A stretch of 64,000 nt of DNA from an uncultured Gammaproteobacteria bacterium (GTDB lineage: Bacteria > Cyanobacteriota > Vampirovibrionia > LMEP-6097), in assembly GCA_964517685.1 (NCBI GenBank), contig CAZFCF010000001.1, forward strand, positions 345,458-409,457, written 5' to 3'. Made by a program: the position numbers and the translations under genes. How positions within the stretch are numbered: position 1 is the stretch's first letter; each line of letters begins with the position of its first letter. The notes under the pieces are model-generated. The model saw only the letters and a list, made by a program, of their open reading frames with translations, was not told the origin of the DNA and ran no database searches. Below are positions 8,197 to 58,515 of the stretch, piece by piece.

Positions 8197-9066
8197 GCTT
8201 GCTTGCACTTCTATAACTTTATTAACAGGAGCTTTCTTGTATTTAAGTCTGTATAATTCAACCCAACCATATTCTTTCAAGAAATATAAATCCTTCTTGA
8301 GGTTCTCAACCCAAACAAAAGAGTTATCAGGATTTCTAGGCTCTTCAGTTAAAGCTAAAAAGTCTGGAACCTTAATGCCAACAAAATCTATTGGAGCTTC
8401 AACATTATAAGCAGAGTTATCGATTAGAACTCTTGCACCATAAATAGGTGGATATTTAGCTGTATAGTATTTAGCCAGATATGGATGAATATTTTTATTA
8501 CCAGTTAAGTGTTGAAAAGATCTTTTGACATAAGATTTATAGAAGCCTACTGTATAGAGCTTAAGCTTTGATTTCTGTTGCGGATGTATATTATTGCGAT
8601 GATTAGGATAGAGAGCAAAATCTCTGTTATAAGGTTTACGAACATCCTCATTAGCAATGACCTTATCAAAGTATTTTGCTAATCCAGAACTGCCCAGAAT
8701 GTCCTTGGCATAGGCTTTACGATTATTAGTAAAAATCATAAGATTGAAACCCAATCTTTTAGCATATTCCAGAATCTCGATCGCTCCAGGACGAATCACA
8801 TATTGCTGACCATCTAAGGAAGTGTTGACCTTATATCCCAATCTCTTTGCAGTTGAAATATCTTCCTTAGTCATTCGATCTGAAGCAATTAAAGTCTCAT
8901 CTAAATCAAAAGCCAAATATTTAGAATTTTTGTCTAAGACTACAGCTTTAGGCGCAGCTTCATAAGTTTCAAGAACACCTTCAAAGGCATTAGCACTTAA
9001 ACCACTGAGTAGAAGAATAAGTAAAACTAAGAGATTTTTTTTGAGCATTTGAATAATTTTTATCAT
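8101..9066 (-). CDS. Secreted HAD-superfamily phosphatase of the FCP1/NIF (CTD-phosphatase-like) type.
   Basis: N-terminal signal peptide (LLVLLILLLSGLSANA). NIF-domain signature AFDLDETLIAS (DxDxT) plus downstream HAD-like blocks. The 3' end overlaps flgH by 96 nt. Confidence 0.5.
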   Translation of the reverse strand: MIKIIQMLKKNLLVLLILLLSGLSANAFEGVLETYEAAPKAVVLDKNSKYLAFDLDETLIASDRMTKEDISTAKRLGYKVNTSLDGQQYVIRPGAIEILEYAKRLGFNLMIFTNNRKAYAKDILGSSGLAKYFDKVIANEDVRKPYNRDFALYPNHRNNIHPQQKSKLKLYTVGFYKSYVKRSFQHLTGNKNIHPYLAKYYTAKYPPIYGARVLIDNSAYNVEAPIDFVGIKVPDFLALTEEPRNPDNSFVWVENLKKDLYFLKEYGWVELYRLKYKKAPVNKVIEVQASLEKSSKYFLYESTVSFFRKGTTVNDLYLSIG

Positions 9067-9188
9067 AACAGATGCTTAGCTGGGCTTGTTATTTAGCCAA
9101 TCGCCACTTTGGGTAGTGAAATTTTCTTGAATGAAAAAGTACTTTCGACCCCTTTCATTTCTATTTTGCGTTAAGCATAATTTTTATT

Positions 9189-9413
9189 GTGAAGACTGAG
9201 TACGATAAAATTATCGATGATTTTTGGAAATTAGTCGCAGTAATGCTGGCAAGCCCAGAAGCTAGTTTATTCCTATATACTTTCCAAAATTTTGAAAATA
9301 TAAACTACAATAATTATTATTGGGGCAAGCATCTAGTTGGACTAATTCTTGTGCTTGCTAGTTTAAGAGTATTTAGGGGAATCTACGAAAGAAATATAAG
9401 GGAAAAATTATGA
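9189..9413 (+). CDS. Small hypothetical protein, 74 aa.
   Basis: ORF track only, in an otherwise unannotated gap. Confidence 0.25.
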   Translation: MKTEYDKIIDDFWKLVAVMLASPEASLFLYTFQNFENINYNNYYWGKHLVGLILVLASLRVFRGIYERNIREKL

Positions 9414-9625
9414 ATGAAAGTTTAATTGGTTTATTAAAAGGTTTTGGTATGTTCTTTATGATGATAGGTTTTTTAGTATTTATTGGCAGACCTGTCAATA
9501 AAATGGCTTTTAAAAAAGAACTAGAACAAGAAAAGGCTATGAATCTTAAGGGAAAAGGTTGGTCATTAGAACGTTGGTTCTTTTGTGATATTTTAGCTTT
9601 TCCGAAAAAAGATTTTATGAATTAA
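9410..9625 (+). CDS. Small hypothetical membrane protein, 71 aa.
   Basis: Hydrophobic segment FGMFFMMIGFLVFIG. ORF track only. Confidence 0.25.
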   Translation: MNESLIGLLKGFGMFFMMIGFLVFIGRPVNKMAFKKELEQEKAMNLKGKGWSLERWFFCDILAFPKKDFMN

Positions 9626-12255
9626 CTAGCAACCACGTTAACTAATTTCTCTGGAACCACTATAACTTTCTTCACACTCAAGCCTTCAATACGCTTTTGC
9701 ATTTTAGTATTAGCTAAAGCAAGCTTTTCAATAGCAGCCTTATCCATTGATTTCTCAACTTCAATAACATCTATCTTTTTACCCATGAATTGAATCACGA
9801 GATTATAGCTATTAGTTTCTAGATACTCATCTTGATATTGAACCCATTTCTGTATATGTACTGAATTAGCTTTCATAAATTCAGCAGAGAAATCTTCATT
9901 AGTATTTTTCAGTAAAACCATTTCAAACCACAACTCTTCAGCTAAATGTGGAGTAAATGGAGAAAGAATTTTAATAAAGTTAAAAAGTACATGACGGAGA
10001 ACTTTTTGATCTTCTTCATCAAAGGTACTAGCAGATTCATTTCTAGCGTTTATATATTTGTACATTGAATTGATAAATTCGAACATTCTAGAAATAGCAG
10101 TATTAAAACCATTTCTTTCAGGATCTAAATCATTAGTAATCGCTTTAAGTGCTTGATGAAAAGCTCTAAGAATATCTGCATTATCAGATTCAAGCTCAGC
10201 TACGTTTTCATTAAAAGCAAATTCATAATTAGTAGTTTCTACTTTTAGTGTGTCTTTCAGTTGTTCGAAGAGACGCCATACTCTAGAAACAAATCTAAAT
10301 TGACCGATAGCAGCTTCATCTTGCCACTCTACTTCTGCTTCTACTGGAGCTGCAAAGAGAATAAATAATCTAGCTGCATCGGCACCATACTCATCGAAGA
10401 AATCATTAGTACCAACCACATTGCCGCGTGATTTAGACATCTTTGCTATCTTGCCTTCAGTCTCTGAATATTTCACCACCATACCTTGTGAAAGTAAGCG
10501 AGTGAAAGGTTCATCATAGTTCAGTAAACCACAGTCCCTAAGAGCCTTAGTGAAGAATCGAGAATAGAGTAAATGGAGAATTGCATGTTCTATACCACCC
10601 ACATATTGATCAACAGGAAAAACTTTATCCTTAGCAAAAGGTAAATTTAAATTATGCGCATCAGGATATCTCAAAAAATACCAACTACTACACATAAAGG
10701 TGTCCATAGTGTCAGTAATTCTTTTGGCTTTTTTACCAGTAGTCGCGCAAGTAGTTTCATACCACTCTGGACTATTTGCAAGTATAGAACCACCATCAGA
10801 CTTAGCTTTAGCAAAATCTATGTCGAGTGGAAGCTTTACAGGAAGCTGTTCATAAGGCACTGGATTAATTTCCCCATCTTCAGTTTCCACTAAAGGAATT
10901 GGACAACCCCAATAGCGTTGCCTGCTTATAAGCCAATCTCTCAATCTATAAGTAGTTTTGAAATCAGCAAAGCCTTTAGCCTTGCCCCACTGAACTATTT
11001 TAGTTTTAGCAGTTTCATTATCTAAGCCATTGAATTCACCACTGTTAACCAAAGTTCCAGTGCCAGTGTAAGCTGCTGTCATTGCGAGAAGGGCGGAGCC
11101 CGACGAAGCAATCCCATTGTGGTGACTTGAAGACCCATCTTCACCCTGAATAACCTCTTTCATTGGTAACTTGAATTCTTTAGCAAACTCAAAATCTCTT
11201 TCATCATGCGCAGGAACCGCCATCACTGCACCCGTTCCATAATCCACTAAAGCATAATCTGCAATCCAAACAGGAATTTTTTCGTTGGTAAAAGGATTGA
11301 GACAATAGGCACCAGTAAAGCAGCCAGTTTTTTTTCTACCTTCTGCTGTCCTTTCAATCTCTGTAAGTGACGCAGTTATAGTAATGTAATCAGCAATAGC
11401 TTTTTTCTGAGCTTCAGTACTTAGCTTAGCTACAAGCTTATGTTCGGGAGCCAAGACCATATAAGTCACTCCCATAATGGTGTCAGGTCTAGTAGTAAAA
11501 ACTTTAATTCTTTCGCTAGTAGCTTTGCCTTCAGCATCAAGAATAGGAAAATCAATTTCTGCACCTTGAGATTTACCAATCCAATTACGTTGCATTAGTT
11601 TTACGCTACTAGGCCAGTGTTCAAGCTTATCCAAGTCCGTGAGCAGTTCTTCTGCATAAGCAGTGATCTTCAAGAACCATTGTTTCATCATGCGTTTCTT
11701 GACTTCAGTGTTACCATGACGCCAACATTTACCATCTTCTACTTGCTCGTTTGCAAGCACAGTATTACATTCAGGACACCAATTAACAGGAGCTTCTTTC
11801 TGGTATGCAAGACCTTTATCATAAAGTTTTAGAAATAAATATTGAGTCCATTTGTAGTAATCTTCTCTACAAGAAACTACTTCCCTGTCCCAGTCATAAC
11901 TAGTGCCCATGCGCTTGAGCTGTTCATCACGCATATAACGAATATTTTCTTCAGTCCATTTACCTGGATGAATATTACGTTCGATAGCTGCATTCTCTGC
12001 AGGTAAACCAAAGGCATCAAAGCCCATAGGATTCAAGACATTAAAACCTTGCATTCTTTTGTAACGAGAAATTACATCTGAGATCGTATAAACGCGCATA
12101 TGTCCCATGTGGAGATTGCCACTAGGATAAGGAAACATCACTAGAGAATAAAACTGTTCTTTATTTTTCTCATTTTCATCATACTGATAGAGCTTGGCTT
12201 TTTCCCAAAGCCTTTGCCATTTAGTTTCAATGTTTTTTGGATTATATTCAGACAT
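9622..12255 (-). CDS. leuS: Leucine--tRNA ligase, with an in-frame GC-rich insertion.
   Basis: PYPSGNLHMGHMRVYTISDVISRY (HIGH region) and KMSKSRGN. 877 aa. The GC-rich element at 11076-11128 encodes EDGSSSHHNGIASSGSALLAMTAA within the protein. Confidence 0.9.
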   Translation of the reverse strand: MSEYNPKNIETKWQRLWEKAKLYQYDENEKNKEQFYSLVMFPYPSGNLHMGHMRVYTISDVISRYKRMQGFNVLNPMGFDAFGLPAENAAIERNIHPGKWTEENIRYMRDEQLKRMGTSYDWDREVVSCREDYYKWTQYLFLKLYDKGLAYQKEAPVNWCPECNTVLANEQVEDGKCWRHGNTEVKKRMMKQWFLKITAYAEELLTDLDKLEHWPSSVKLMQRNWIGKSQGAEIDFPILDAEGKATSERIKVFTTRPDTIMGVTYMVLAPEHKLVAKLSTEAQKKAIADYITITASLTEIERTAEGRKKTGCFTGAYCLNPFTNEKIPVWIADYALVDYGTGAVMAVPAHDERDFEFAKEFKLPMKEVIQGEDGSSSHHNGIASSGSALLAMTAAYTGTGTLVNSGEFNGLDNETAKTKIVQWGKAKGFADFKTTYRLRDWLISRQRYWGCPIPLVETEDGEINPVPYEQLPVKLPLDIDFAKAKSDGGSILANSPEWYETTCATTGKKAKRITDTMDTFMCSSWYFLRYPDAHNLNLPFAKDKVFPVDQYVGGIEHAILHLLYSRFFTKALRDCGLLNYDEPFTRLLSQGMVVKYSETEGKIAKMSKSRGNVVGTNDFFDEYGADAARLFILFAAPVEAEVEWQDEAAIGQFRFVSRVWRLFEQLKDTLKVETTNYEFAFNENVAELESDNADILRAFHQALKAITNDLDPERNGFNTAISRMFEFINSMYKYINARNESASTFDEEDQKVLRHVLFNFIKILSPFTPHLAEELWFEMVLLKNTNEDFSAEFMKANSVHIQKWVQYQDEYLETNSYNLVIQFMGKKIDVIEVEKSMDKAAIEKLALANTKMQKRIEGLSVKKVIVVPEKLVNVVAS
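11076..11128. repeat. Partial RPE-like element inside leuS, in frame.
   Basis: gctgtcattgcgagaagggcggagcccgacgaagcaatccc shares the left half with the 6498 and 56229 copies. Confidence 0.65.
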
Positions 12256-44463: not shown

Positions 44464-45189
44464 ATGATGAACAAAAAAACAATGCCACAAAAACTTCTTG
44501 CAATAGTGCCCGCTGCCGGCACTGGCAGCCGCATGAATAGTGATACGCCAAAACAATTTATTGAGATCAATGGCAAACCAATTCTCATCATTACTCTTGA
44601 AACCCTTATAAACACTGGATTTTTCGAGAAAATTATCATCCCTACAATTGATATAAATTACAGCAAAGAAATCATTCACAAGTTTCTAGCAGAGCATGAA
44701 AATTCCTTAATAGTATGCAGTGGTGGTAAAACGCGTCAAGAAAGCGTTTACAAGGCTTTACAAGAAGCAAAGAAATTTGCTATTGAAACTCAGCTGACTT
44801 TGGTGCACGATGCTGCGCGAGCATTAATTGATCAAGAAACAATCACTAATGTAATCGATAAAGCTATAGAAACTGGCGCTGCAAGCGCTGCAAGGCCAGT
44901 AACAGATACTCTAAAACTTAGTCGTTTGCAAAATTCAGACTTTATAATCGAAAAAAATATCTCTCGCGAAAATCTTTGGACAATGCAAACACCACAAGTT
45001 TTCAAATCATCTCTTTTGTATGAGGCACATCAAAAAGCTCATGAAGAAAATTTCTCAGGAACAGATTGTTGTGCACTTGTAGAAAATCTCGGACAAGAAA
45101 TTTATTTAGTAGAAAGCCCTTTGACTAATATCAAAATTACAACCCAAGAGGATATTAGTTTTGCGAAGGTCGTATTTTATCAAGGTTAG
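44464..45189 (+). CDS. ispD: 2-C-methyl-D-erythritol 4-phosphate cytidylyltransferase.
   Basis: LLAIVPAAGTGSRMNSDTPKQFIEINGKPIL. Confidence 0.85.
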   Translation: MMNKKTMPQKLLAIVPAAGTGSRMNSDTPKQFIEINGKPILIITLETLINTGFFEKIIIPTIDINYSKEIIHKFLAEHENSLIVCSGGKTRQESVYKALQEAKKFAIETQLTLVHDAARALIDQETITNVIDKAIETGAASAARPVTDTLKLSRLQNSDFIIEKNISRENLWTMQTPQVFKSSLLYEAHQKAHEENFSGTDCCALVENLGQEIYLVESPLTNIKITTQEDISFAKVVFYQG

Positions 45190-48097
45190 CATTAATAAAA
45201 TTTTCAAAAGCACGAGAAAAAGCACCATATTCATCGTCCATATGGTCACGGTTTATATTATTGGCAAGGAGAATCCAATCGGTTCTCATATCTCTAAATC
45301 CTCTCATTATTGAAATCTCATTATCATATGTTGCATTAAATTTATTAGGATCTATTTGTTTTATGTCCAATCCTCGAAGTTTAACAACAGCTTCAATAAC
45401 AATAGCTTTTAAAGCTTTGTCCATATCAGAAGAATGAATTTTACTTCTTATCTCCGCAAGATTTGTATGAAACTTATATTTTTCTTCTGCTTTTGGCGGC
45501 GGAGAGACTATTGAATCATCTTTAGCAAGAGCAGTGATAGTAAAAAATAGTTGGCTTGCAAGAGAGTCTATAAGCTTAATTTCTTTTTTAACTAAAGTTG
45601 CTTTAGCTTCTCTTGGATCTGCTGCTGAACCTTCTCTTCTGAAGAATGCTCCATACTCCAATAATGCTGTTTTATAATTACTAAAAGTATCTCTAAAATC
45701 ATTTAATATAGTTAACCCGCTTCGCTGACCTTTAGGTAATTTCAAATCTATTATTTTTTTGTCTTTAAGAAAATCTATTAAATTAGAATAAAATACTCCA
45801 TGATTTTTAGATTTTTCAATTAAATCCTTGATACTAGGCTTAAGATGCGATTTATCATCTGCCTGCTTTGCAATTGATTTAGATACTTTCTTTTCCTCAA
45901 CAACATCGGCAATCATGCTTCTTACTGCCTTTTCATCAAACTTTGCATAATATGGACCATCATTCTTGAATTCTTCTAAAGCAAAGCTGAATCCTTTCTT
46001 ATTGAGCGGCTCCTGTGTCGGTGGTAATTGTTGTACTGATTTTTCAGAGACAGAAGATGCTGGTACTGCTGCTGTTTGCTCATTTGGTTTCACTGAGTTC
46101 TCTTCTATTTTTCTAATACGTTGATTAATATATTCTTCAAATTTATTTTTAAAATTCACAAAAGCTTGATCCTTTTCAAAATGATTACTCTTAATAAAAT
46201 TTTTCAAGGCACCGAGTGGCACAGACCATGATAAGTCACTGCCTATTATTTCTTCAGCCAATTTTCCTGTTTCTGAATCTGTTTGAGCTGTGCCTTCACT
46301 CCTTCCTTTTATTTGATGTGCTGCTTCTCTAACAAGTTTTCTTAATATGAAATCCTCTTTTTTAATTCCTCCTTTAATTTCTCCATCTTTAATCATTGCA
46401 ATCGATAGCTCTAAGCTTGTAGGATTAAAATGTGCTTTATAGCCTGAAGTTGTGGTAGTACTCACATTTTCAGGTGCTGGTTCTTCAGCTACTTTTACTT
46501 TATTTGTACCTTGTCCAGGTTTATTATTACGTAAAGTAAAAACCAAATCTTTTTTTTGCTTTTCTAGATTTGATGGCAATTCATCATGAATTTTATTTAT
46601 TTGATCGTGTATAAAATTTGTATCCCCAACAGATTCCATTTTGTTGTCGTCATCTTCTAACTTATAAGTAATTGAAGGTTGAGACTTAGAATCATCTGGA
46701 TATCGAGTTTCTATAACAAGTGTTTTTGGCCCTACTCGATTAGCTAGATAATAATGATTTACACTCACATCTTTAACAACTTGTGATAAATCTAATTTTA
46801 ATTTGACCGATGACTTACCATCAACTAAATTCTGCGAACCTGCTTCAATATCAGTTAGATAGGGAAGTAATTCAAGAATACGGTCAAGATCTTGAAAGTC
46901 TCTCAATATGTGTGAAAGATGTCGACCGTCGGGTTCTTCTAACGGTTGCACAGAAGTCATTCCAAGAGGAAGTATCTCTTGTGTTTCAAGCTTTTCATCG
47001 CGTAGATTTTCAAAAAGTTTTCTTTGTTTAGAATCCGATGGCAAAGCTTGTAAAATAGTATTTAAAGCTTGATTATCATTATTTTCTAGAGACCAGCAGC
47101 CCCTAACCTCCCTACCATTTCTACCTCTACATGCAAAGGTAATAAACTGTTTATCACTAATCATTTCTGTTTTTATTACAACAACTTGTTTACCAATATT
47201 AGACAATAAATCTAACTTTAAAGATATAGAATTTTTATCTTCTCCTTTATCAACTGATTCAATATAAGGTATAAGTGCAAGAAAATCTTCTAATTTACGG
47301 TTTTCCAAAAGTTTATGTTCAAAATTATCCCAAAGGTCTTTTGCAATTTTTGGATCTATTGGCTTTGCTTTACTTTGCTTAATTGCAGTAGGTAATAAAT
47401 TACTAAACTGTTTTCTAATTTGAGTTGGTAAACTTCCTAGAATTTTCGAAAGAACGTTTATCGGAAGAGTATACTCCAAGCCATTGATACCAAACTTAAT
47501 CACCTTTTCGTTAATTCCAATCTCTATCGGTAATTGATATGCATTGATATTTTTTGGCAATGTTGCTTCCAGTGAAAAAACTGCTAATAAACCTTTGTAA
47601 TCTTCCGGCTCAGGTAAAGAATCTAGAGTAGAATTTTCTTGAGGATACTTTTTTTCTACCTTAACAACATAAGGCAGCAATCTTTTCAAATCCTCAAGTC
47701 CTCCAGTTGTGCCCATCATTAATTTAGTGATGGAAGATTCAAGTTTTTCTTTTTTACTACGACGTGATGCTGCAAAAACGAGACCACCACCACTTAATAA
47801 AGTACTAAGTGCAATATATAAATTTTTGTCATATAGAATTTTATTGATTTGATCAGCCACTATTGCTGTATCTTCAATTGTTGTTTCTTCAATCGTAGTT
47901 GCTGGAATTTTTCTAATATCAATATACTCTTCACCACCATCACCTATAAAGTCTGGCTTCAAAGGCATTTCAGCTTTTTTGGTTATCGTATTAGTTGTAT
48001 TATTTTTAGAAGGCTCAACTAAATCATGAACAGTGTAAGCTCCAAAGCCTGTTAAGCTTAGCCCAGTGAATGTAACTATATTTTTCAGGAAGCTCAT
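45155..48097 (-). CDS. Large hypothetical protein, 980 aa, with an N-terminal hydrophobic segment and internal ~100-aa repeats.
   Basis: Repeated block L(E/D)(D/R)(L/F/I)(K/L)(R/A/E)L(L/I)PY(V/I/L)... recurs at least three times, followed by a K/E-rich C-terminus. Confidence 0.45.
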   Translation of the reverse strand: MSFLKNIVTFTGLSLTGFGAYTVHDLVEPSKNNTTNTITKKAEMPLKPDFIGDGGEEYIDIRKIPATTIEETTIEDTAIVADQINKILYDKNLYIALSTLLSGGGLVFAASRRSKKEKLESSITKLMMGTTGGLEDLKRLLPYVVKVEKKYPQENSTLDSLPEPEDYKGLLAVFSLEATLPKNINAYQLPIEIGINEKVIKFGINGLEYTLPINVLSKILGSLPTQIRKQFSNLLPTAIKQSKAKPIDPKIAKDLWDNFEHKLLENRKLEDFLALIPYIESVDKGEDKNSISLKLDLLSNIGKQVVVIKTEMISDKQFITFACRGRNGREVRGCWSLENNDNQALNTILQALPSDSKQRKLFENLRDEKLETQEILPLGMTSVQPLEEPDGRHLSHILRDFQDLDRILELLPYLTDIEAGSQNLVDGKSSVKLKLDLSQVVKDVSVNHYYLANRVGPKTLVIETRYPDDSKSQPSITYKLEDDDNKMESVGDTNFIHDQINKIHDELPSNLEKQKKDLVFTLRNNKPGQGTNKVKVAEEPAPENVSTTTTSGYKAHFNPTSLELSIAMIKDGEIKGGIKKEDFILRKLVREAAHQIKGRSEGTAQTDSETGKLAEEIIGSDLSWSVPLGALKNFIKSNHFEKDQAFVNFKNKFEEYINQRIRKIEENSVKPNEQTAAVPASSVSEKSVQQLPPTQEPLNKKGFSFALEEFKNDGPYYAKFDEKAVRSMIADVVEEKKVSKSIAKQADDKSHLKPSIKDLIEKSKNHGVFYSNLIDFLKDKKIIDLKLPKGQRSGLTILNDFRDTFSNYKTALLEYGAFFRREGSAADPREAKATLVKKEIKLIDSLASQLFFTITALAKDDSIVSPPPKAEEKYKFHTNLAEIRSKIHSSDMDKALKAIVIEAVVKLRGLDIKQIDPNKFNATYDNEISIMRGFRDMRTDWILLANNINRDHMDDEYGAFSRAFENFINANLDKIRPSQN

Positions 48098-48131: not shown

Positions 48132-51041
48132 TTATTTTACATTTGTTGGAGTTTTTATAATTGTATAATCGCCATCCACTTTCTTAAAGAGTTCACGACC
48201 AATAGTTTTTAATAATGATTGAATCTCAATAAAAATTGGATAGTATTGATTATTGTTTTTTTGTTCTGATTTTTTGGTTAAATAATTTAAATAGGGATAA
48301 CCTTCACCTAATTTCACCCCAACACTTTGATTCTGCAATACAGCTAATTCTTTTGCTTTATCTAAGCCATTAATAGCCTCGTTCTTATTATTTGCTTGAG
48401 CTGTTTGTACTACAATCTCATCTTTATTTTTTGCATAAATTCTCAATGCAACTGCACTTGTAGAATTATGGTAAAGCAATTCAATACTGCCATCATCTGT
48501 TTTAATTCTATCTACCTTAGAATTTGCTAGCTCATGTTTACCAAATAATTTTTCTTTAGCTTCATTTGATAATTTCAATTCACTTAGTTTTAAAGCTTCA
48601 TCAATTGTTTTAGTTTCTTTGGAAACAGGTGGTGTTGAAGTTTTGATTGGCTTTGTAGTTTCTTGCTTAGGTGATTTTTTCACTTCAGGAATTGCTAGTT
48701 CCAATTTAGAACCAAGCTGTTTTAAATCTACTTTTCCTAATTTAATTCTTATTGGAGCTGGCTCTGTTTCTTTCGCTGGCTGTTCTTTAGTTTCTTTTTC
48801 CTGCTCAGGTGATTCTTTCATTTCTTCGATTACTATTGGTTCAAAAGTTTTGTTAGACTGACTCAAATCTTTATTTAATGAAATTCTGATTGGAGTTAAA
48901 TCCACAATTGATTCTGGTGTTGCCGCAGCACCTCTATTATTTTCTTTTGTCTCGGAAGGATTTTTAGCAACAGTAGACTTATCCATATAAAAATCCTTAC
49001 CTTTGAAGTCATAAGTTGTATTTGTCGGTCTTGAAGGAGTAGTCTCAACCTCAGAAGTAGTCCTTTTAATATCAGTAATATCCCTAACTAATGGCTTCCT
49101 TGGAGTACGCTCAGCAAGAGTATTTGATTTAAAAATTTGACCTTCTAAATTTAGCGCAGTAGCTATTGGTGGAGCTATCTTATTAGCACCCTTCATAAAC
49201 CCACTAACATTAGTTTTTACAGCCTTGCCAAATTCAACTGCTTCAGTCGCAAAGTCTAAACCTTGCAGCAGCATTGATTTTGCAGTTTCATTTATTTCAT
49301 TCTTTAATTGAGTTTTTAAATCTTCATTTAAATCACTCAAAGCTTTTATGCCGACAGGAAGCATCATGAGACCATCTGCTAGACCTTTTGTACCTGAAAT
49401 TACTAAAGGTCCCAAATTTGGTATATCAATAGGTTCATCAGCGATAGTTACAGGCAAAGCCGGTGGCTCTGGTCTTTCTTCAACAATATTAATTGGTAAT
49501 TCTGGTGGCGGCGGTCCTACTTCTGCTTCAGGATTCTTCATTGGCTTTACTACTATTGGAGCCGTCTTATTTTCTGACTCTGGTGCAAAAGTTACTGTTG
49601 TAGGTATTTCATTTTCATCAGCAACCATTGCTTCAATTGGTGAATTATTTTCATATTGCTTGAGAATATGATTGATGCCTTCTTTTACAGTTTCATCACT
49701 GCTGCTTTTCATTTCCTCTAAAAAATTACGAGCAATTTCTGTTATATTTTTATCTGCAAAAATAATATCCTTAGAAGATGAATCAATAACAAATTCTTCA
49801 GCTAACTCTGCACTCTTTAAAGCAGAATCTTCATCTGTATCATAACTTGCACGTATTGCTATAGTTCCAGGATCTTTATAGCTAATTTTTAAAGCTAATG
49901 CTTTTATATCATCAAGTTCTCCATTATCACTAATCAAAGTATGTGGATGAACCAGATCAAGACTATTAGTTTCTTTATTAAAATTTGATTTCTCTTTTAT
50001 ATTACTACCATTTAAGTTCATGCACCATAGCGCACCAGGCGTTCTCAAATTGTAACCATTATATTTATCTCTTTTAAAACTTGGTATAAATTCTTTTTCT
50101 ACTTTTGGCGCAGATTCTGGTGGACTTGGCATTGCTTCTGCTGCTTTCTTTTCCGAGTCTCTGATCATTGTTTTTAATTTTTCGCTTGCTTCAGGTTTTT
50201 CAGGAACAGTGTCGTTAAACCATACTTTAGCTTCAGTAGCAAAAAGATTTTTACCTTTGTTCTCCTCACGACCCAACCAGTCCAGAGCTGATTTATAAGG
50301 TACATAGCTAAAGCCATCACTACCATCCTTTTTAGAATAGTGATCAATTAAATACCACTCATTATCTATTTTTGCCTGATATAAAAAAGAATTTACTTCT
50401 TCCGGTTTTGATCCAAAGTTCTCCGGCTTAGATTTTGTTAACTCAGTAATAACTGGTTCACTTTCCACTTTTGCATCTTCTATTGGAGTTACTGGCTTTT
50501 CTGTTACCGGCATCTCAGGCTTTGACTCAATACCTTTTTCTTCAGTACCTGATGGTGCATTCATATAATCAATACTTTGCTTCAAGCTTGCTGGTACTAC
50601 TGTCCATCCAAGAGTCTTTGAGTGTGCTGGATCAAAAATCGATCCACCATTCTTTCTAATTTCATTTGCTTTAGATTCTTTAATCATTTTTACGCTTGGA
50701 TCAACACCCGCTCTAGTATCGCGTAAAACTAAATATGACTCACCATTAGTACGAGCTCGATAAAATTTCAAACCTTGATAATTTTCTTTATCTAAACTCG
50801 AATCAAATTCTTTTGGACTAAGTTCTTTTGTATCAAATGTTGTCCATGGAGCTGGACTAACTATTGAATTAGAATCATTAGTTGTATTTGGCGTAAAACT
50901 GTCTTTCGGTGCAGCACAACTTGGAGCCTGTGTTTGTACAGGAGCACAAGGCTGAGATTTATGATATTTATGTTTTGCCTGCATTACAGGTGCATAAAAA
51001 GCTTGTTGCTGAATAAATTGCTGTCTACATTTTTTCCCCAT
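48132..51041 (-). CDS. Large hypothetical protein, 969 aa, Pro/Glu/Lys/Thr-rich, with a GPPPPELP proline motif.
   Basis: ORF track. Low-complexity and P-rich linkers. No TM segment. Confidence 0.45.
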   Translation of the reverse strand: MGKKCRQQFIQQQAFYAPVMQAKHKYHKSQPCAPVQTQAPSCAAPKDSFTPNTTNDSNSIVSPAPWTTFDTKELSPKEFDSSLDKENYQGLKFYRARTNGESYLVLRDTRAGVDPSVKMIKESKANEIRKNGGSIFDPAHSKTLGWTVVPASLKQSIDYMNAPSGTEEKGIESKPEMPVTEKPVTPIEDAKVESEPVITELTKSKPENFGSKPEEVNSFLYQAKIDNEWYLIDHYSKKDGSDGFSYVPYKSALDWLGREENKGKNLFATEAKVWFNDTVPEKPEASEKLKTMIRDSEKKAAEAMPSPPESAPKVEKEFIPSFKRDKYNGYNLRTPGALWCMNLNGSNIKEKSNFNKETNSLDLVHPHTLISDNGELDDIKALALKISYKDPGTIAIRASYDTDEDSALKSAELAEEFVIDSSSKDIIFADKNITEIARNFLEEMKSSSDETVKEGINHILKQYENNSPIEAMVADENEIPTTVTFAPESENKTAPIVVKPMKNPEAEVGPPPPELPINIVEERPEPPALPVTIADEPIDIPNLGPLVISGTKGLADGLMMLPVGIKALSDLNEDLKTQLKNEINETAKSMLLQGLDFATEAVEFGKAVKTNVSGFMKGANKIAPPIATALNLEGQIFKSNTLAERTPRKPLVRDITDIKRTTSEVETTPSRPTNTTYDFKGKDFYMDKSTVAKNPSETKENNRGAAATPESIVDLTPIRISLNKDLSQSNKTFEPIVIEEMKESPEQEKETKEQPAKETEPAPIRIKLGKVDLKQLGSKLELAIPEVKKSPKQETTKPIKTSTPPVSKETKTIDEALKLSELKLSNEAKEKLFGKHELANSKVDRIKTDDGSIELLYHNSTSAVALRIYAKNKDEIVVQTAQANNKNEAINGLDKAKELAVLQNQSVGVKLGEGYPYLNYLTKKSEQKNNNQYYPIFIEIQSLLKTIGRELFKKVDGDYTIIKTPTNVK

Positions 51042-51185: not shown

Positions 51186-51222
51186 CTGGATTGCCACGCC
51201 GCTTCGCGGCTCGCAATGACGA
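51186..51222. repeat. RPE-like fragment, right half, intergenic.
   Basis: ctggattgccacgccgcttcgcggctcgcaatgacga. Confidence 0.6.
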
Positions 51223-51259: not shown

Positions 51260-52279
51260 CTATATCCAAAATATAGGATCTAGCCCTGGGATCGCGGCAC
51301 CATCAATGATCTGATTAATTTGTTTTCTGACTTTATTTTTATAAGCTTCTTGTAAGGGATGCGATTCAGGCATGCAGGCTTCTAAAGAAAACTTGCCAGC
51401 CCATTCATCATTTTCCATATCTTCAGCACCCAAATTACGAGCAGCCATTTCACTACAGTGATTCATTAGATTTTGTGCAAAGACAATTTCATTAGTAGGT
51501 CTTAGAGCCGCAGTGGCAGTTTCTTTAGCAAGCGATATAGTCCAACACACAGTTCCATCATCAAATCTTTCTACTGAGTTGAGATATTTACTTTCACCCC
51601 GACCACCAAGGTGAGCAATCTGTCTCAGGTTGCGATATTGATCCACAGTGGTTTCATTAATTACAATTGGTTCTGTTTTATCAAAAGAGCAATGTTTCAC
51701 ACTAATAATATGATGAGCCTCATCATATTGAATAACTTGCACAAAATTTGTTTGCAAGGTTTTTTCTGATGGATAAGCGATAAGTACTTGATTTGCAGCT
51801 TCATTTCTTTTAAACCAAACCTGGAAATCTCTTTTATCAGGTCTTGTAATATCAAGCATTTGATTAAAAGCAAATTCACTTAAATGAGAATATTGCGCAT
51901 GAATCTTGGATAATCGTTGCTTAGTCATAGAACAGATTCTAGGCTGAAACCCTTTCTCTTCCAGGCTTTCAATGTTACCCAAATTAACGTAAGGCTCAAG
52001 ATTACGAGAAGGAATAAGTTCTAGTGTTTGTTTAAACTCTGGAGAGTTATGCTGCGGAAAGACTCCGACTCTTTTATCTTCTTGTGGAAAAGCAATATTT
52101 ACTTTACTTGCCTGACCAGGCTTAGTCATCAAAACTAACTCAGTAAGATTTTCTGGATCAAGTCGCTTACCGCTTTTACTGGAATTTTTATATGCATAAG
52201 GACCACCAACATAATTAAACTTATGTTCAAGTCTTACACTCTCAACTGCTTTTGCTTCTTCTTTTTGTTCTTCATCCAT
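51260..52279 (-). CDS. Hypothetical protein, 340 aa, paralog of the 52343-53446 product.
   Basis: Shared blocks with its neighbour: RVG(V/R)FPQHN, RDF(Q/D)VW, PIVINETT/PLVINQT, NS(V/L)ERFDDGT, ARNLGAE, GKFS(L/P)EAC(M/V)PESH, VRKQ(I/V)NQI(I/V)DGA(A/C)IPGL(D/T)PIF. Confidence 0.5.
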   Translation of the reverse strand: MDEEQKEEAKAVESVRLEHKFNYVGGPYAYKNSSKSGKRLDPENLTELVLMTKPGQASKVNIAFPQEDKRVGVFPQHNSPEFKQTLELIPSRNLEPYVNLGNIESLEEKGFQPRICSMTKQRLSKIHAQYSHLSEFAFNQMLDITRPDKRDFQVWFKRNEAANQVLIAYPSEKTLQTNFVQVIQYDEAHHIISVKHCSFDKTEPIVINETTVDQYRNLRQIAHLGGRGESKYLNSVERFDDGTVCWTISLAKETATAALRPTNEIVFAQNLMNHCSEMAARNLGAEDMENDEWAGKFSLEACMPESHPLQEAYKNKVRKQINQIIDGAAIPGLDPIFWI

Positions 52280-52342
52280 CTCTATGCAGAGAGTATCTTT
52301 TAGAAATAATTCTATGTCTAAAGAAACCTACCTTAAGTTAGC

Positions 52343-53446
52343 TTAGCCTGTAAAACTAGTATTTTCAAGCGTAGAGATTGGGAAGATTGGCGTTAAACCA
52401 GGTATACAAGCTCCATCAACAATTTGATTAACTTGTTTTCTTACTGAAGTTTTGTACTCTCTTCTAACTATGTATTTATCATGGGATTCAGGCACACAAG
52501 CCTCAGGAGAGAACTTACCAATCCAAGACTGAGTTTTAGTATCAATACCTTCTGCACCTAAATTTCTTGCTGAGAACTCTGTAAGTTCTTTATTCAGACC
52601 AGGCAATAGAATTACTTCTCCATCATCTTTCAAGACTGCTGAACCAACTACATTCTTACCAAACTTAAAGTCAGAAGTAGTCCACATGATAGTTCCATCA
52701 TCAAATCTCTCCAAAGAATTCACAAAAGAATTAGAAGTAGATCCCGTAACGCCCACATGAGCAATATTGCGAGTACGACCATCTTTATCAATGCAGGTTT
52801 GATTTATTACCAGTGGAATACTCGTCTCATAAACCACATGCCTTAAATCACAGACAGCACCTGATTCATCAAGGAATACACTTTGCATAAATTGAATCAA
52901 AAAGTTATGAGGATTAATATAGGCAATCATAATTTCACCTTCAACTTCTCTAACCCAAACATCAAAATCTCTTTTTTCTACTTCACTTTGCAAACAAAGC
53001 ATCTCTTTAAAACATTCAGAACTTAAATGAGCAAACTGGTTTGCTAAATTCGCAATTTTTTTCTTGGTAAGAGTGGCTTTATGTGGCTTAAAGCCAGCCT
53101 CTTCTAAACTAAATACAGAATGCAGGTCACGATATTTATCCAGCGTGAGAGAAGCTAAAACTTGAATTCCAGTTTGAAAAGCACCTGGAGTATTGTGTTG
53201 AGGAAATCTACCTACTCTTTGATCGCGAGGTGGTACCTTTAATTCTAATAATCTTGCTTGTCCAGGAGATGCATAAACTATTCTTGACTGAGAAGGTAAG
53301 TTTTTGTTTTTATTTGATTTAGAAGTCTTACTTAAGTAATTAAAATTATGCTTGATATTCAATGCTTGGCCAGGAGCAGTATCTAATACCTCCTGAGCAA
53401 GTTTAATTGCATCATCTATAATTGCCGATTGCGACATCTGACCCAA
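52343..53446 (-). CDS. Hypothetical protein, 367 aa, paralog of the 51260-52279 product.
   Basis: See the paralog entry. Confidence 0.5.
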   Translation of the reverse strand: MGQMSQSAIIDDAIKLAQEVLDTAPGQALNIKHNFNYLSKTSKSNKNKNLPSQSRIVYASPGQARLLELKVPPRDQRVGRFPQHNTPGAFQTGIQVLASLTLDKYRDLHSVFSLEEAGFKPHKATLTKKKIANLANQFAHLSSECFKEMLCLQSEVEKRDFDVWVREVEGEIMIAYINPHNFLIQFMQSVFLDESGAVCDLRHVVYETSIPLVINQTCIDKDGRTRNIAHVGVTGSTSNSFVNSLERFDDGTIMWTTSDFKFGKNVVGSAVLKDDGEVILLPGLNKELTEFSARNLGAEGIDTKTQSWIGKFSPEACVPESHDKYIVRREYKTSVRKQVNQIVDGACIPGLTPIFPISTLENTSFTG

Positions 53447-53508: not shown

Positions 53509-54345
53509 TTATTTCTTCCCATCAATGATTTTCTTTTTGTTTTGGGGTAAATAATTTTCTTGGCTAATAATAGATTTGCCAGTTTTTGATTCTAGATCTT
53601 TTCTGGCTTTACCAGCTACTCCACCACCGGTTTTGGCAGCCTCTTTGTTTTGCACAAAACCATGTGCATCATTTTTTCTAGTAATCTCTGTGGTTGCAGC
53701 TTCGCCAAGCATTGAAAAAATTAACTCTAAATCAGTCATGTGATCTCTTAAATTTTCGCGCTTGAGATTTTTGTGTTTTTTATATTCACTTGGAGTCATT
53801 CCAAAAGTTGCTCTGGATATTTCTGCAGTAAGAATTGAATATTCTTTTCCTTCTTTGACATCACGTTGCTTCCATTCATCTGTAAGTTCTTCACGAATGG
53901 CAATAGAGCGCATACGCTTTTCTATCCAATTCTCTGAATAACCTTTAGCTTTATAAATTTCTCTTGCTCTTTGACTAGCAAGCTCAGGATTTTCAATTTC
54001 TTTAACTCGGTCATATCCAACTTGAGCAAGCCAAAGTTTTAGTGGTTCTGCTTTTGGCGATGGAATTGACTGAATAATTCGAAGCATCGTTTCAGTATTA
54101 GCACAATCAGTTTTGCGATATTTGCCATCAATTGCTAATAATTTCAACTGGTTACAATTTGTAACCGTTTGATTTGAACCTTCATTCATTAACCTATTTT
54201 TTAGGACTTTCCAGTAATTTCTAGCGTCTTCACTAACTCCTAAAACATCAATTACATCTACAACAGAAAACCACCATTCATCATTATGTAAGGTTTTACG
54301 GATTTCCTTTTCTTCAAAAATGGCTAATTTATATTCTTCATTCAT
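53509..54345 (-). CDS. DinD-like (DNA-damage-inducible protein D) / Bro-N family protein.
   Basis: C-terminal RDHMTDLELIFSMLGEAATTEITRKNDAHGF...KTGGGVAGKARKDLE aligns with E. coli DinD (DHMGSTELAANLFRATQTEEKLKRDGV...GRKVRQTIQELGG). Confidence 0.55.
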   Translation of the reverse strand: MNEEYKLAIFEEKEIRKTLHNDEWWFSVVDVIDVLGVSEDARNYWKVLKNRLMNEGSNQTVTNCNQLKLLAIDGKYRKTDCANTETMLRIIQSIPSPKAEPLKLWLAQVGYDRVKEIENPELASQRAREIYKAKGYSENWIEKRMRSIAIREELTDEWKQRDVKEGKEYSILTAEISRATFGMTPSEYKKHKNLKRENLRDHMTDLELIFSMLGEAATTEITRKNDAHGFVQNKEAAKTGGGVAGKARKDLESKTGKSIISQENYLPQNKKKIIDGKK

Positions 54346-54453: not shown

Positions 54454-57363
54454 TTATGAGATTGCCATCAATTCATCTTCAAAGATTTTTTTCTTATTAC
54501 TAACTTCATCCAGATTAGCTTTCAGTTCTTCTATCTTTTCAGGAGAAGCATTCTTAATAAAGCCATCAGAGCTAAGTCTTGAGTTTAGAACTTTAATATC
54601 AGCATTAAGTTTCTCAATTTGCTTTTTGATTTTCTCTGAGAGCTTATTGAGATCTACAATGCCACTTAAAGGAACTATAACTTCAATTCCAGAAATTTGA
54701 TTTTTGAAAGCAGGCTTAGCATCTACAGTATTAGACTCAAAACTTACTTTACTTAATTTCACTGGATTCTTTATATATTCACTAAAGTTCTCAAGCTTAG
54801 ATTTCAAAGCCTGATCTTTAATTACTAAAATCACCTCAAAATTCACTGACCATGGGATATCTAGAGACTGACGAATATTACGCAAGTTACCAATTAGATC
54901 TTTAATAAGTTCTACAGTGCTATTAGCTTCTGAGAAATTAAAATTCTCTGCTTTAGGATAGCTTGCAAAACAAATTGATTTAGTCTCAGCATTATCAATC
55001 GCAGAAAAATCATACTTAGCTTTTAGCTCTTGCCAAATCTCTTCAGTGATAAATGGAGCAATTGGATGTAAGGCTCTTAAAGACGCTTCAAGAATATAAA
55101 AGAGAATTTGTTTTTGGCTAGATTTATCAGCACTATCTATCTTAGTAAATTCAATATACCAATCACAAAAATCGAACCAAGTAAACTCATAGATTAGCTT
55201 TTGGATCTTGGTTAGATCATATCCCTTAAATGCTTCATCAATTTCAGCAAGCACTTTAGAGAATTTAGTTAAAACCCATTTATCAGTTTCAAGTAAGTTA
55301 CTAGTGTCTAATTTGCTCATGACTGCAGGCTTAAAAGTTCCACCGTCATCTAGCTTAGTCATCACAAACTTAGTTGCATTAAAAAGCTTGTTACAGAATT
55401 TACGATACTGCTCAAATGTATCAGAGAACCAAGCTTCGTTCTGATCTTTACGACCAGGGAATTTTACATCTTGTTGTCCATGAATACCGACGCTGGCATA
55501 CCAAAGACGACTAGCATCAGCGCCATATTTACTAACCATCTCTAAAGGATCAATAGCATTGCCTTTAGACTTACTCATACGTTTACCATCAGGTGTTTGC
55601 ACAACTGGATGAATCAATATATCTGAGAAAGGCTGCTTACCATTTTCAAAATATATACTTGAGAAAATCATTCGCGTCACCCAGAGATTAATGATCTCTC
55701 TTGCAGTTGCAAGCACATCAGTCGGGTAGAATTTTTCAAAAACTTTTTGATCGAAGTCTGTAGTCTCAAGCTCACCTTTAGCAGACTTCAAGGTCTCAAA
55801 CGGCCAGAGTGCACTACTAAACCAAGTATCAAGTACATCATCATCTTGCCTATGATCTAGTTCTCTAGCTTTTTCAGCAGCATAGTATCTAGTCACCAAG
55901 CCTGATTCATCATCGGCAGGGTTTTCTTTATCGTTAAAAGGATTAGGAGTACCAGCATTCGTCTCATAATAGAAAACTGGAATTCTATGTCCCCACCAAA
56001 TCTGACGGCTTACACACCAGTCTTGAATATTTTCAAGCCAGTTTTTAAAAATCACATTATATCTTTCTGGAGTGAATTGCGATTTACCAGAAGCAACTAA
56101 ATCGAGTGACTTTTGAGCTAGACCTTGCATTGCTAAGTACCACTGTTCACTTAGATAAGGTTCGATTTCAGTATTGCAACGATCGTGAAGGTCTTTTTCT
56201 TGGTCGTATTCTGTAGTTTGCACAAGTACGTCATTGCGAGCAGAGCGTGTCATTGCGAGCGGAGCGAAGCAATCTCCCTGCATAGACTGGATCGCCACGC
56301 CCTGCTGCGCAGGACTCGCCATGACATTTTTGTTGTCACTGTGACCAAGTAAAGCAAGAACCTTCTCTCTTGCAGCATACCTATCAAGCCCAGTCAACCC
56401 AAGGCTTTCAGGGATCTCTGGGCAAGCTTTCATCTTGGCTTGTTTATCCATAATTATTGGTTTATCTAAGCCATGTTTTTTACCAATCTCGAAATCATTA
56501 GCATCATGTGCTGGAGTAACTTTTAGGGCACCAGTACCAAAGTCGGTCTTCACATGCTCATCAAGAATCACAGGAATTTCTTTATTGCTAAGTGGGATTA
56601 AAACCTTAACTGAATCAGGAGCGTTTTTAATTTGTTTAATCAAACCAGAGAATCTCTCATCATTAGGATTAATCGCAACTGCCACATCACCAAACATAGT
56701 CTCTGGACGGGTTGTAGCGACAGTAATTGATTCATTAGAATCTTTGATTTGGTATTTAATTTCGTAAAGTTTTTTCTTAGTTGTTTCTTTTGCAATTTCC
56801 AAATCCGAAAGTGAAGTAAGACATTTAGGACACCAATTCACTACACGATTACCGCGATAAATTAGTCCATCATTGAAATATTTAATAAAAGCATTCTGCA
56901 CCGCTGAAGCGTAGTGGTCATCCATGGTGTAGCGAATACGTTTATAATCTGGACTAAAGCCCAAGACTTTCATTTGCTCAATGATTTTATTACCGTAGTC
57001 TTCTTTCCAAGCTTTCACTCGCTTGAGAAATTCTTCTCTACCTAGATCTTCTTTTCTTTTGTGTTCGGTTTGCTTGAGATTTTTCTCAACCACCAGCTGA
57101 GTACCGATACCAGCATGATCAGTACCAATTTGCCAAAGCACATCTTTACCAAGCATACGGTTGTAACGAATTAGAATATCTTGGATAGTGCCACCCAAGG
57201 CATGACCCATATGTAACTCGCCAGTCACATTCGGTGGTGGCAAAGCAATAGAAAAACTTTCAGTATTTTCACGGACAGTGGTATCAAAAATACCTTGCTC
57301 AAGCCAATTTTTCATCCATTTGCTTTCGATTTCTATTGGTGAATATTGTTTGCTTGCGTCCAT
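54454..57363 (-). CDS. valS: Valine--tRNA ligase, with an in-frame GC-rich insertion.
   Basis: PPPNVTGELHMGHALG and KMSKSKGN, plus a C-terminal coiled coil. The element at 56229-56326 encodes ...NKNVMASPAQQGVAIQSMQGDCFAPLAMTRSARNDV... Confidence 0.9.
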   Translation of the reverse strand: MDASKQYSPIEIESKWMKNWLEQGIFDTTVRENTESFSIALPPPNVTGELHMGHALGGTIQDILIRYNRMLGKDVLWQIGTDHAGIGTQLVVEKNLKQTEHKRKEDLGREEFLKRVKAWKEDYGNKIIEQMKVLGFSPDYKRIRYTMDDHYASAVQNAFIKYFNDGLIYRGNRVVNWCPKCLTSLSDLEIAKETTKKKLYEIKYQIKDSNESITVATTRPETMFGDVAVAINPNDERFSGLIKQIKNAPDSVKVLIPLSNKEIPVILDEHVKTDFGTGALKVTPAHDANDFEIGKKHGLDKPIIMDKQAKMKACPEIPESLGLTGLDRYAAREKVLALLGHSDNKNVMASPAQQGVAIQSMQGDCFAPLAMTRSARNDVLVQTTEYDQEKDLHDRCNTEIEPYLSEQWYLAMQGLAQKSLDLVASGKSQFTPERYNVIFKNWLENIQDWCVSRQIWWGHRIPVFYYETNAGTPNPFNDKENPADDESGLVTRYYAAEKARELDHRQDDDVLDTWFSSALWPFETLKSAKGELETTDFDQKVFEKFYPTDVLATAREIINLWVTRMIFSSIYFENGKQPFSDILIHPVVQTPDGKRMSKSKGNAIDPLEMVSKYGADASRLWYASVGIHGQQDVKFPGRKDQNEAWFSDTFEQYRKFCNKLFNATKFVMTKLDDGGTFKPAVMSKLDTSNLLETDKWVLTKFSKVLAEIDEAFKGYDLTKIQKLIYEFTWFDFCDWYIEFTKIDSADKSSQKQILFYILEASLRALHPIAPFITEEIWQELKAKYDFSAIDNAETKSICFASYPKAENFNFSEANSTVELIKDLIGNLRNIRQSLDIPWSVNFEVILVIKDQALKSKLENFSEYIKNPVKLSKVSFESNTVDAKPAFKNQISGIEVIVPLSGIVDLNKLSEKIKKQIEKLNADIKVLNSRLSSDGFIKNASPEKIEELKANLDEVSNKKKIFEDELMAIS
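56229..56326. repeat. RPE-like element inside valS, in frame, with a duplicated left end.
   Basis: cgtcattgcgagcagagcgtgtcattgcgagcggagcgaagcaatctccc...gactggatcgccacgccctgctgcgcaggactcgccatgaca. Confidence 0.8.
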
Positions 57364-57527: not shown

Positions 57528-57785
57528 TTGGACAAAAAATATACTAAAATTCTCAGGAAAATCAAAGAGAATCCAAAAGCTGTAACAGTCACTGAACTCA
57601 TAAAGCTAATGGAATTGATCGGTTTTTCTTATAGAAGAGGTTCTAAGAATCATTATATTTTTTACTATCAATCATTAACTATTGGAGTTGCGCCTCCTCA
57701 TCCTGGCAAACATATAAAACCAATTTATGTAAGAGAATGTCTAAAGGCAATTAATGAGGTAATAGAAAATGACCAAAAAAACTAA
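57528..57785 (+). CDS. hicA: HicA-family mRNA interferase toxin.
   Basis: 85 aa; HicA (YcfA-like) C-terminal block HPGKHIKPIYVRECLK. Confidence 0.6.
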   Translation: MDKKYTKILRKIKENPKAVTVTELIKLMELIGFSYRRGSKNHYIFYYQSLTIGVAPPHPGKHIKPIYVRECLKAINEVIENDQKN

Positions 57786-58152
57786 AGAACAAAATTTCAA
57801 ACAAGAAATAAAAAACTATCTAGAGCTTCCATATAGCTTCACGGTTGCCAAAGATACTGATGAAGACGAAGAGGAATACTTTTATGCTTTAGTCAATGAA
57901 TTACCTGGTTGCGTTTCAGACGGCAAAACCCCAGAAGAAGCTTTGAAGAACATTAAAGATGCAATGTACGATTGGATTGAAACAGCTTTAATTAATGGGG
58001 AGAGAATTCCTGAACCTAATAAATGCAGCGGTAAATTTTCAGTAAGAATTCCACCTTCTTTGCATCAAGATCTTATTAATAAAAGTAATCGTGAAGGCGT
58101 AAGTATTAACCAACTAGTTACTTCTGCTATTTCAAGAGCTGTGGGTTTTTAG
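57769..58152 (+). CDS. hicB: HicB-family antitoxin.
   Basis: Overlaps hicA by 17 nt. HicB fold motif LPGCVSDGKTPEEALKNIKDA and a C-terminal RHH-like GVSINQLVTSAISRAVG. Confidence 0.6.
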   Translation: MTKKTKEQNFKQEIKNYLELPYSFTVAKDTDEDEEEYFYALVNELPGCVSDGKTPEEALKNIKDAMYDWIETALINGERIPEPNKCSGKFSVRIPPSLHQDLINKSNREGVSINQLVTSAISRAVGF

Positions 58153-58164
58153 TAGGTAAATTGA

Positions 58165-58515
58165 CTATCGGCTAGAAAACAAAACTTTTCCTGTTCGTTT
58201 AATTTCTCTAATAAAATCAGGATCAATATAGGAATCTTCGTTGTAATAACTTTTTGAAGGAAATGCCAATAACTGCAAATATGGCTCACAAAGTCCAGCT
58301 TTTCTAGAAACGGTTAAAACATTCTTGAACATAGCCTGTCCAACTTCTAAATCTGGTGAGACGACAGCAATATCTACATCACTCAAATCTGTTGCTGTGC
58401 CTTTTGCATAGGAACCAAAAAGTATAATCTCATCAATTTGAAAACTCTTTGTAACCGAATTAACGACTTTATCTGTAAGTTCTTTTAATTCTACGGTAGT
58501 TTTTTTTCCAGCCAT
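58165..58515 (-). CDS. Minimal nucleotidyltransferase (MNT; Pol-beta superfamily).
   Basis: LFGSYAKGTATDLSDVDIAVV is the GS...D.D motif. No HEPN partner gene is adjacent. Confidence 0.6.
   Translation of the reverse strand: MAGKKTTVELKELTDKVVNSVTKSFQIDEIILFGSYAKGTATDLSDVDIAVVSPDLEVGQAMFKNVLTVSRKAGLCEPYLQLLAFPSKSYYNEDSYIDPDFIREIKRTGKVLFSSR

Follow-up and report, generated by a model that had tools for sequence, protein, structure and literature searches.

Order-specific conserved hypothetical proteins, of the kind cataloged as domains of unknown function (DUFs), are common, and a specialist would not be very surprised to meet another such family. Among better described proteins, the Kelch repeat (PF01344; KLHL20, KEAP1 and the designed SAKe proteins) builds propellers of five to seven tandem blades, and Borrelia OspA, the YD-repeat shells of Rhs/TcC proteins and the MORN repeats have in common a long run of consecutive antiparallel β-hairpins. 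Here we analyze two adjacent genes, denoted A and B, in a 64,000-nucleotide stretch of contig CAZFCF010000001.1 (the window), the products of which share some features with each of these groups. By elimination, the A/B family falls outside every known family or fold tested and can best be regarded as an unclassified family of DUF grade with one Kelch-blade-like meander; it is restricted to the order Caenarcaniphilales (non-photosynthetic Melainabacteria/Vampirovibrionia). Members of this order are Melainabacteria that live by fermentation and do not photosynthesize (Soo et al. 2014, PMC4040986). On balance, we consider it probable that A and B are ancient paralogs within this order-restricted orphan family and are soluble cytoplasmic core proteins that carry a polar His/Asp/Glu/Arg site and probably form oligomers.

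The A/B gene pair and its family

The pair occupies the following positions of the window:

51260-52279, minus strand: gene A, an open reading frame (ORF) of 339 amino acids plus stop, with an ATG start; the A-type, ancestral-like copy
52280-52342, minus strand: the spacer between B and A, 63 nucleotides, with no convincing terminator
52343-53446, minus strand: gene B, an ORF of 367 amino acids counted from the TTG at 53446; the B-type paralog

An earlier note on this DNA had proposed that these ORFs are a tandem paralog pair that defines an unrecognized conserved domain, and this proposal is borne out: both ORFs are in place, the proteins align over their full length with 38% identity and 60% positives in 340 columns (BLASTP, E=1e-81), a level of sequence similarity far above chance, and every collinear block that had been listed is seen in the alignment. 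The product of B more likely starts at the in-frame ATG at 53437 than at the TTG at 53446, which would make it a protein of 364 amino acids, because an AGGAGG box is located 11 nucleotides upstream of this ATG. A and B are probably co-transcribed because the spacer lacks a convincing terminator; the terminator scan detected none on the minus strand there, with the counts of the promoter and terminator scan being at shuffle level and hence uninformative. At orthologous loci, the gap between B and A ranges from 8 to 260 nucleotides. The predicted isoelectric points are 5.9 (A) and 6.8 (B), both N-termini are hydrophilic, and neither protein contains a signal peptide, a transmembrane segment or a hydrophobic segment by a crude test for export (maximum 19-residue Kyte-Doolittle mean of 0.57 for A and 1.35 for B); by these sequence features, A and B are soluble and predicted to be cytoplasmic.

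Neither protein matches Pfam or NCBIfam at threshold, PHROGs and PADLOC models yielded no match for either, and none of the database searches assigned the pair to a well-known family with a housekeeping function. When all 53 aligned members of the family were scanned singly, only sub-threshold noise was obtained (DeoRC in 5, Kelch_1 in 3, SpoVG in 3); the names 'SpoVG' and 'DeoR/GlpR' attached to two homologs by JGI trace back to such noise, and Vezatin, which also surfaced in the library scans (Pfam, NCBIfam, PHROGs, PADLOC), is of the same sub-threshold nature. A word-indexed search of 5.8 billion clusters retrieved 76 clusters of 210-390 amino acids with 42-95% identity to A, none of which has a precomputed Pfam domain and which, where named, are hypothetical proteins from metagenome-assembled genomes (MAGs) of Melainabacteria or Cyanobacteria. 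Using the profile of the 53 aligned members for a search without a word index against 1.84 billion representatives, we identified 14 proteins at E<1e-30, the remainder being fragments plus a small number of long Kelch-repeat proteins in which only profile positions ~228-281 are matched, four to eight times each; apart from these proteins on this one short stretch, no relatives outside the family were found among the representatives. Likewise, no relative of A or B was found in phages and plasmids (tblastn) or in IMG/VR contigs. No credible domain fusion was identified among the family members; in one 231-residue protein (P0087), an HlyD/membrane-fusion-like N-terminus is fused to the last 80 family residues, most likely as a chimera created by assembly or gene calling. 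In the searchable literature on Caenarcaniphilales and Melainabacteria signature proteins, we found no mention of the family.

A scan of one genome per species for 185,579 species (pattern search and tblastn) recovered 30 loci of the family, which are labeled Melainabacteria, Vampirovibrionia, Cyanobacteriota, Caenarcaniphilales ('Caenarcanales') or generically, with the order-level labels present in both main clades of the family tree. Many third-party MAGs (L006-L008, L010, L021, L023, L028, L029, L031, L032 and L034) are titled 'uncultured Gammaproteobacteria bacterium' and one (L020) 'Proteobacteria bacterium'; these titles are probably taxonomic mislabels because the contigs share the whole melainabacterial synteny block. 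Two gene orders are observed, namely ileS(-) | valS - B - A | ispD(-), xerC-like, oppC, plsY, ddl, and ileS(-) | A | ispD(-), in which B is missing and valS is located elsewhere. The window follows the first order but also carries insertions specific to its lineage: valS and B are separated by a Bro-N gene, and A and ispD by two ORFs of ~970 codons. In one MAG, A and valS-B are on separate contigs (L010, L034), and another (L032) carries two basal copies of the family. Gene A is present in every A-bearing locus recovered, always next to ispD, and is a single-copy core gene with a fixed position between ileS and ispD. The conserved neighbors are functionally heterogeneous, so the synteny reflects chromosomal stability and implies no functional link.

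In a neighbor-joining tree built from 44 full-length members, the topologies of the A and B clades are mirror images of each other, which places the duplication before the radiation of the sampled lineages. The single-copy clade lies within the A clade, flanked by two groups of genomes that have both copies. Most simply, a single tandem duplication preceded the divergence of the sampled lineages, the two copies were then inherited together vertically, and one subclade lost B together with the local valS. Pairwise ratios of nonsynonymous to synonymous substitution rates (dN/dS, Nei-Gojobori) range from 0.02 to 0.05 for A, apart from a single saturated pair (0.15), and from 0.08 to 0.16 for B; the neighbors, measured in the same genome pairs, yield 0.04-0.05 (ileS), 0.08-0.12 (valS), 0.02-0.18 (ispD) and 0.05-0.15 (xerC). 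Purifying selection on the two copies matches in strength that on aminoacyl-tRNA synthetases, with A as constrained as such a synthetase and B about half as constrained. Compared with A, B evolves faster, possesses a specific N-terminal helix and is absent from one subclade.

Conserved residues and predicted fold

The motifs discussed below map as follows:

52181-52237, minus strand: N-terminal motif of A, V-x-L-x-H-x-x-N-Y-V-G-G-x-Y-A-Y-K-N-S, predicted to be disordered
52043-52051, minus strand: H77-N78-S79 of A, the end of the invariant R-A-G-x-[YFH]-P-Q-H-N-[S/T]
53189-53197, minus strand: H84-N85-T86 of B, the paralog copy of the H-N-[S/T] motif
51530-51616, minus strand: residues 222-250 of A, AHLGGRGESKYLNSVERFDDGTVCWTISL, the most conserved block, resembling one Kelch blade
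52670-52762, minus strand: residues 229-259 of B, AHVGVTGSTSNSFVNSLERFDDGTIMWTTSD, the paralog copy of this block
51269-51310, minus strand: C-terminal tail of A, IIDGAAIPGLDPIF, after the long C-terminal helix
52382-52423, minus strand: C-terminal tail of B, IVDGACIPGLTPIF, the paralog copy of this tail

Across the 53 members, the motifs AHxG, NS[VL]ERFDDG, ARNLGAE and IDGAxIPGxxPIF are conserved (residue numbers here and below are those of A). Residues H19, Y23, H77-N78-[S/T], H196, D213, R219, H223, E237, R238 and D240-D241 are invariant in both clades, and the polar positions that are invariant or at least 90% conserved comprise H19, Y23, R70, Q76, H77, N78, Q129, R150, D151, Q181, H196, N208, D213, R219, H223, N234, E237, R238, D240, D241, N282, E286, K314, R318 and D326. 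The conserved structural residues include Gly, Pro and Trp together with the C-terminal I-P-G-x-x-P-I-F; within the tail of A, the invariant residues are D326, G327, I330, P331, G332, P335 and F337, and the conserved residues of the 222-250 block are H223, G225, N234, E237, R238, D240, D241 and W246. Residues H77 and N78 do not vary, and only Ser or Thr occurs at position 79 (53 of 53 and 44 of 44 sequences), with a hypervariable acidic linker of 7-32 residues directly following. Both paralogs have kept four invariant His together with Asp, Glu, Arg, Asn and Gln residues despite their deep divergence, which suggests a site that binds a ligand, metal or substrate; the combination of the four His with Asp, Glu, Arg and Asn resembles an enzyme or metal site more than a scaffold.

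The number of positions conserved only in the A clade is 51, compared with 26 conserved only in the B clade. The A-specific set includes NYVGGxYAYKNSS, RPDKRDF, C197, E209 and C302; in the N-terminal motif, GG..YKNS is kept in the A clade only, and H19 and Y23 in both clades. By this comparison, A retains a fuller ancestral constraint set than B.

The checks proposed in the earlier note included AlphaFold modeling and a search for structural neighbors; the family-alignment-based AlphaFold2 models of A (predicted local distance difference test score, pLDDT, 79.4; predicted template modeling score 0.70) and B (79.8 and 0.74) show an identical order of secondary structure elements and have no Foldseek neighbor. 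In the predictions, the ~80 N-terminal residues are of low confidence and disordered, though they carry invariant motifs, whereas residues ~85-339 form a confident core (pLDDT 85-98) that consists of a strand, two short helices, a meander of 10-12 antiparallel strands into which one helix is inserted, and a long helix near the C-terminus, after which comes the invariant IPGxxPIF tail. Searches with Foldseek detected nothing at E≤0.001 for A against PDB and the BFVD viral models or for B against PDB. The best matches (E≥0.004, query-normalized TM-score ≤0.27) are OspA, Rhs/TcC shells, MORN proteins and SdgB, that is, generic β-meanders.

A search of all PDB sequences with the family profile matched only Kelch propellers and designed SAKe propellers, limited to the stretch AHxGxxGxxxxNSVERFDDGTxxW, and the Kelch-type hidden Markov model matches cover profile positions ~226-275 only. 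Over ~28-50 residues, the family consensus A[H]xGxxGxxxxxNSVERFDDGTxxW aligns with the blade consensus avGGxdgxxxLNSVERYDpxtxxW, and this stretch is predicted to form a four-strand antiparallel meander, as in a Kelch blade. Nevertheless, the best per-stretch E-value to Kelch is 0.63, the apparent significance arising from summation over six blades of the target; A scores 14.4 bits with Kelch_1, below the cut-off of 20.1, and 3 of the 53 members match at E≤10. In contrast to the Kelch propellers, the family contains one blade-like unit only. Comparison of non-overlapping segments of the β region with hhalign detected no internal repeats (probabilities ≤1.5%), the models do not form a closed propeller, and there is no propeller among the Foldseek matches. 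Among named families, the Kelch blade comes closest to A and B, but the likeness is a resemblance or a relic, not membership.

Proposed mechanism and alternative explanations

In the mechanism that we propose, A would function in the cytoplasm as an oligomer, namely A-A where A occurs alone and A-B where both are present. A small ligand or partner would be bound or transformed at the predicted polar site, which would be formed on the sheet by H196, D213, R219, H223, N234, E237, R238 and D240/D241, with the N-terminal arm, including the invariant H19/Y23 and the PQHN[S/T] loops, closing over it. The N-terminal arm and the C-terminal tail might fold over the site or dock in trans within the oligomer. 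Having kept the core site and lost about half of the A-specific constraints, B would then probably be a specialized or regulatory subunit. That A and B are enzymes specifically is a more tentative suggestion, which we view as possible and rather doubtful. An essential Caenarcaniphilales-specific enzyme of an unseen fold, consisting of A with B as a partner, which could stand in, without orthology, for a canonical housekeeping activity that these streamlined genomes lack and in which PQHN|[S/T] may self-process the N-terminal arm, seems quite unlikely.

The main rival to the interpretation of A and B as core proteins with a polar site is a non-enzymatic scaffold or adaptor, in which the β-meander would bind proteins and the disordered N-terminal motifs and the IPGxxPIF tail would be docking or self-assembly peptides. 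The one-blade resemblance to Kelch repeats is compatible with such a role, as are the nature of the best Foldseek neighbors (binding or structural β-meander proteins such as OspA, MORN proteins and the Rhs shell, all non-significant), the low or moderate pLDDT of the conserved termini and the invariant Gly, Pro and aromatic residues of the C-terminal tail. However, nineteen invariant polar or charged residues, four His among them, are kept in both paralogs, which is more typical of a catalytic or ligand-binding site, the proteins lack a repeat architecture, and no partner gene is consistently adjacent, so that we regard a scaffold as unlikely. A different explanation for the conserved N-terminal residues, drawn by analogy, is that H-N-[S/T] is a cis-autoproteolytic site at which Asn cyclization or an N-to-O acyl shift would free the N-terminal arm of ~78 residues. 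Known junctions of this type are HN|[CST] at the C-termini of inteins, HL|T in GPS and HF|S in Nup98/ZU5, and the family has an invariant His-Asn-[Ser/Thr] at a domain boundary, with the hypervariable acidic linker immediately downstream; the similarity to these junctions is confined to the motif. No Hint/intein, GAIN, Nup98-APD or ZU5 domain was detected (Pfam, Foldseek), the site is in a low-confidence region with a predicted disordered segment upstream rather than in a strained β-turn, and a three-residue motif, being weak evidence, could equally belong to an active-site loop. Self-processing is therefore improbable.

Two explanations had been put forward in the earlier note itself, and both fare still worse. 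A Cys/His hydrolase or transferase was inferred there from invariant EAC.PESH and AHxG motifs, of which the latter is indeed truly invariant (H223, G225) and the former is not. The Cys of EAC.PESH (C302) is present in 30 of 30 A-clade sequences but in only 10 of 14 B-clade sequences (~90% overall), the remaining four B-type proteins having Ala or Arg at this position while retaining every other core invariant residue; the P-E-S-H residues, His included, vary in both clades. Furthermore, neither Pfam, NCBIfam and PDB sequence searches nor Foldseek produced a papain-, transglutaminase- or NlpC/P60-like match, which makes Cys/His chemistry very improbable. The divergence of the pair had also been considered typical of host-interaction genes. 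Some Vampirovibrionia are predators, lineage-specific insertions (the Bro-N/PDC-S13 gene and the two ~970-codon low-complexity ORFs) adjoin the pair, and the Kelch-like motif has a eukaryote-like appearance, all of which could be invoked for fast-evolving, effector-like genes that act on a host or prey and arose by a recent tandem duplication. But the duplication is older than the radiation, the dN/dS values of 0.02-0.16 are as low as those of the housekeeping neighbors, the synteny is fixed among housekeeping genes with never more than one or two copies, and there is neither a signal peptide or transmembrane segment nor a relative in phages, plasmids, viruses or other mobile elements; we consider this explanation extremely improbable. 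The pair is neither a Cys-dependent enzyme nor a fast-evolving host-interaction pair.

Neighboring genes, repeats and comparison with known systems

The 3' boundary of the pair is marked by a repeat element:

51189-51220, minus strand: GC-rich palindromic element GTCATTGCGAG...GGCAATC, 40 nucleotides downstream of the stop codon of A

This element is one copy of a short palindromic repeat rich in GC (GTCATTGCGAG - variable hairpin - GGCAATCC) that is dispersed through the window, the core of which occurs 7 times compared with 0.22 expected (copies at 6536, 6601, 11080, 32067, 51189-51220 and 56229-56340). Two tandem cores at 56229-56340 are located inside valS (54454-57363, minus strand), within a 37-residue in-frame insertion (SDNKNVMASPAQQGVAIQSMQGDCFAPLAMTRSARND) that is absent from seven orthologous valS genes; further copies are found within two ORFs (4638-6722 and 9622-12255) and at two intergenic sites. 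In this respect, the repeat behaves like the in-frame palindromic elements of Rickettsia.

Between valS and B, the window encodes a 278-residue Bro-N protein (53509-54345, minus strand; Pfam E=1.9e-12), which matches over its full length the PADLOC candidate defense gene PDC-S13 (E=7e-123) and also phrog_15286 (E=6e-101). By ORF comparison, this gene has no relative in full valS-B-A orthologous loci, the contig of the closest relative (L006) beginning within B. Downstream of A, two ORFs of 969 and 980 codons (48132-51041 and 45155-48097, both on the minus strand) separate it from ispD; neither product matches Pfam or NCBIfam, and that of 48132-51041 is a low-complexity protein rich in Pro, Glu and Lys. 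These ORFs are present only in this genome and in its 95%-identical relative L006, and their products are only 29-34% identical to the L006 counterparts, which implies very fast evolution. On comparison, they proved to be neither paralogs of each other nor members of the A/B family. It is the products of these ORFs, and not those of A and B, that resemble candidates for lineage-specific surface or interaction proteins. Between valS and ileS, there are genes for a HicB-like antitoxin (57769-58152, plus strand) and a small MNT/Pol-β-type nucleotidyltransferase (58165-58515, minus strand), for which ORF comparison detected no relative at orthologous loci; there, ileS and valS diverge directly from each other.

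In one single-copy lineage (L004), the region between ileS and A contains a gene (7684-9885, plus strand) for a 733-residue DUF1521 protein that is unrelated to B. This protein has an HGDPH motif as well as GISGQQ(L/Y)D repeats at its C-terminus; DUF1521 is a metal-induced GD|PH self-cleaving domain of NopE-type effectors.

The practical outcome of this analysis is negative, in that the readings based on Cys/His chemistry and on host interaction can be dropped. As it stands, A/B is one more conserved hypothetical family. If it proves to be an enzyme or an essential factor, it would be a defining component of its lineage, an uncultured cyanobacterial order that does not photosynthesize, and, possibly, a clean marker gene for Caenarcaniphilales. 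The family could also be a target for structural genomics, given that Foldseek finds no PDB neighbor of its fold, and the ancient pair, of which one clade has lost B, provides a natural test case for the transition from a homomer to a paralogous heteromer.

Compared with OspA, the Rhs/TcC shells and the MORN repeats, with which they have the run of β-hairpins in common, A and B show no sequence similarity, differ in the helices and the termini, and are cytoplasmic, without a lipoprotein or toxin context. A further parallel is with lineage-specific 'conserved hypothetical' core genes of the DUF type, which have the same restriction to an order, single or double copy, synteny, purifying selection and the label 'hypothetical protein'. 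Unlike these, the A/B family is not covered by any DUF or Pfam entry, and a dN/dS as low as that of ileS places it at the high end of constraint for such families.

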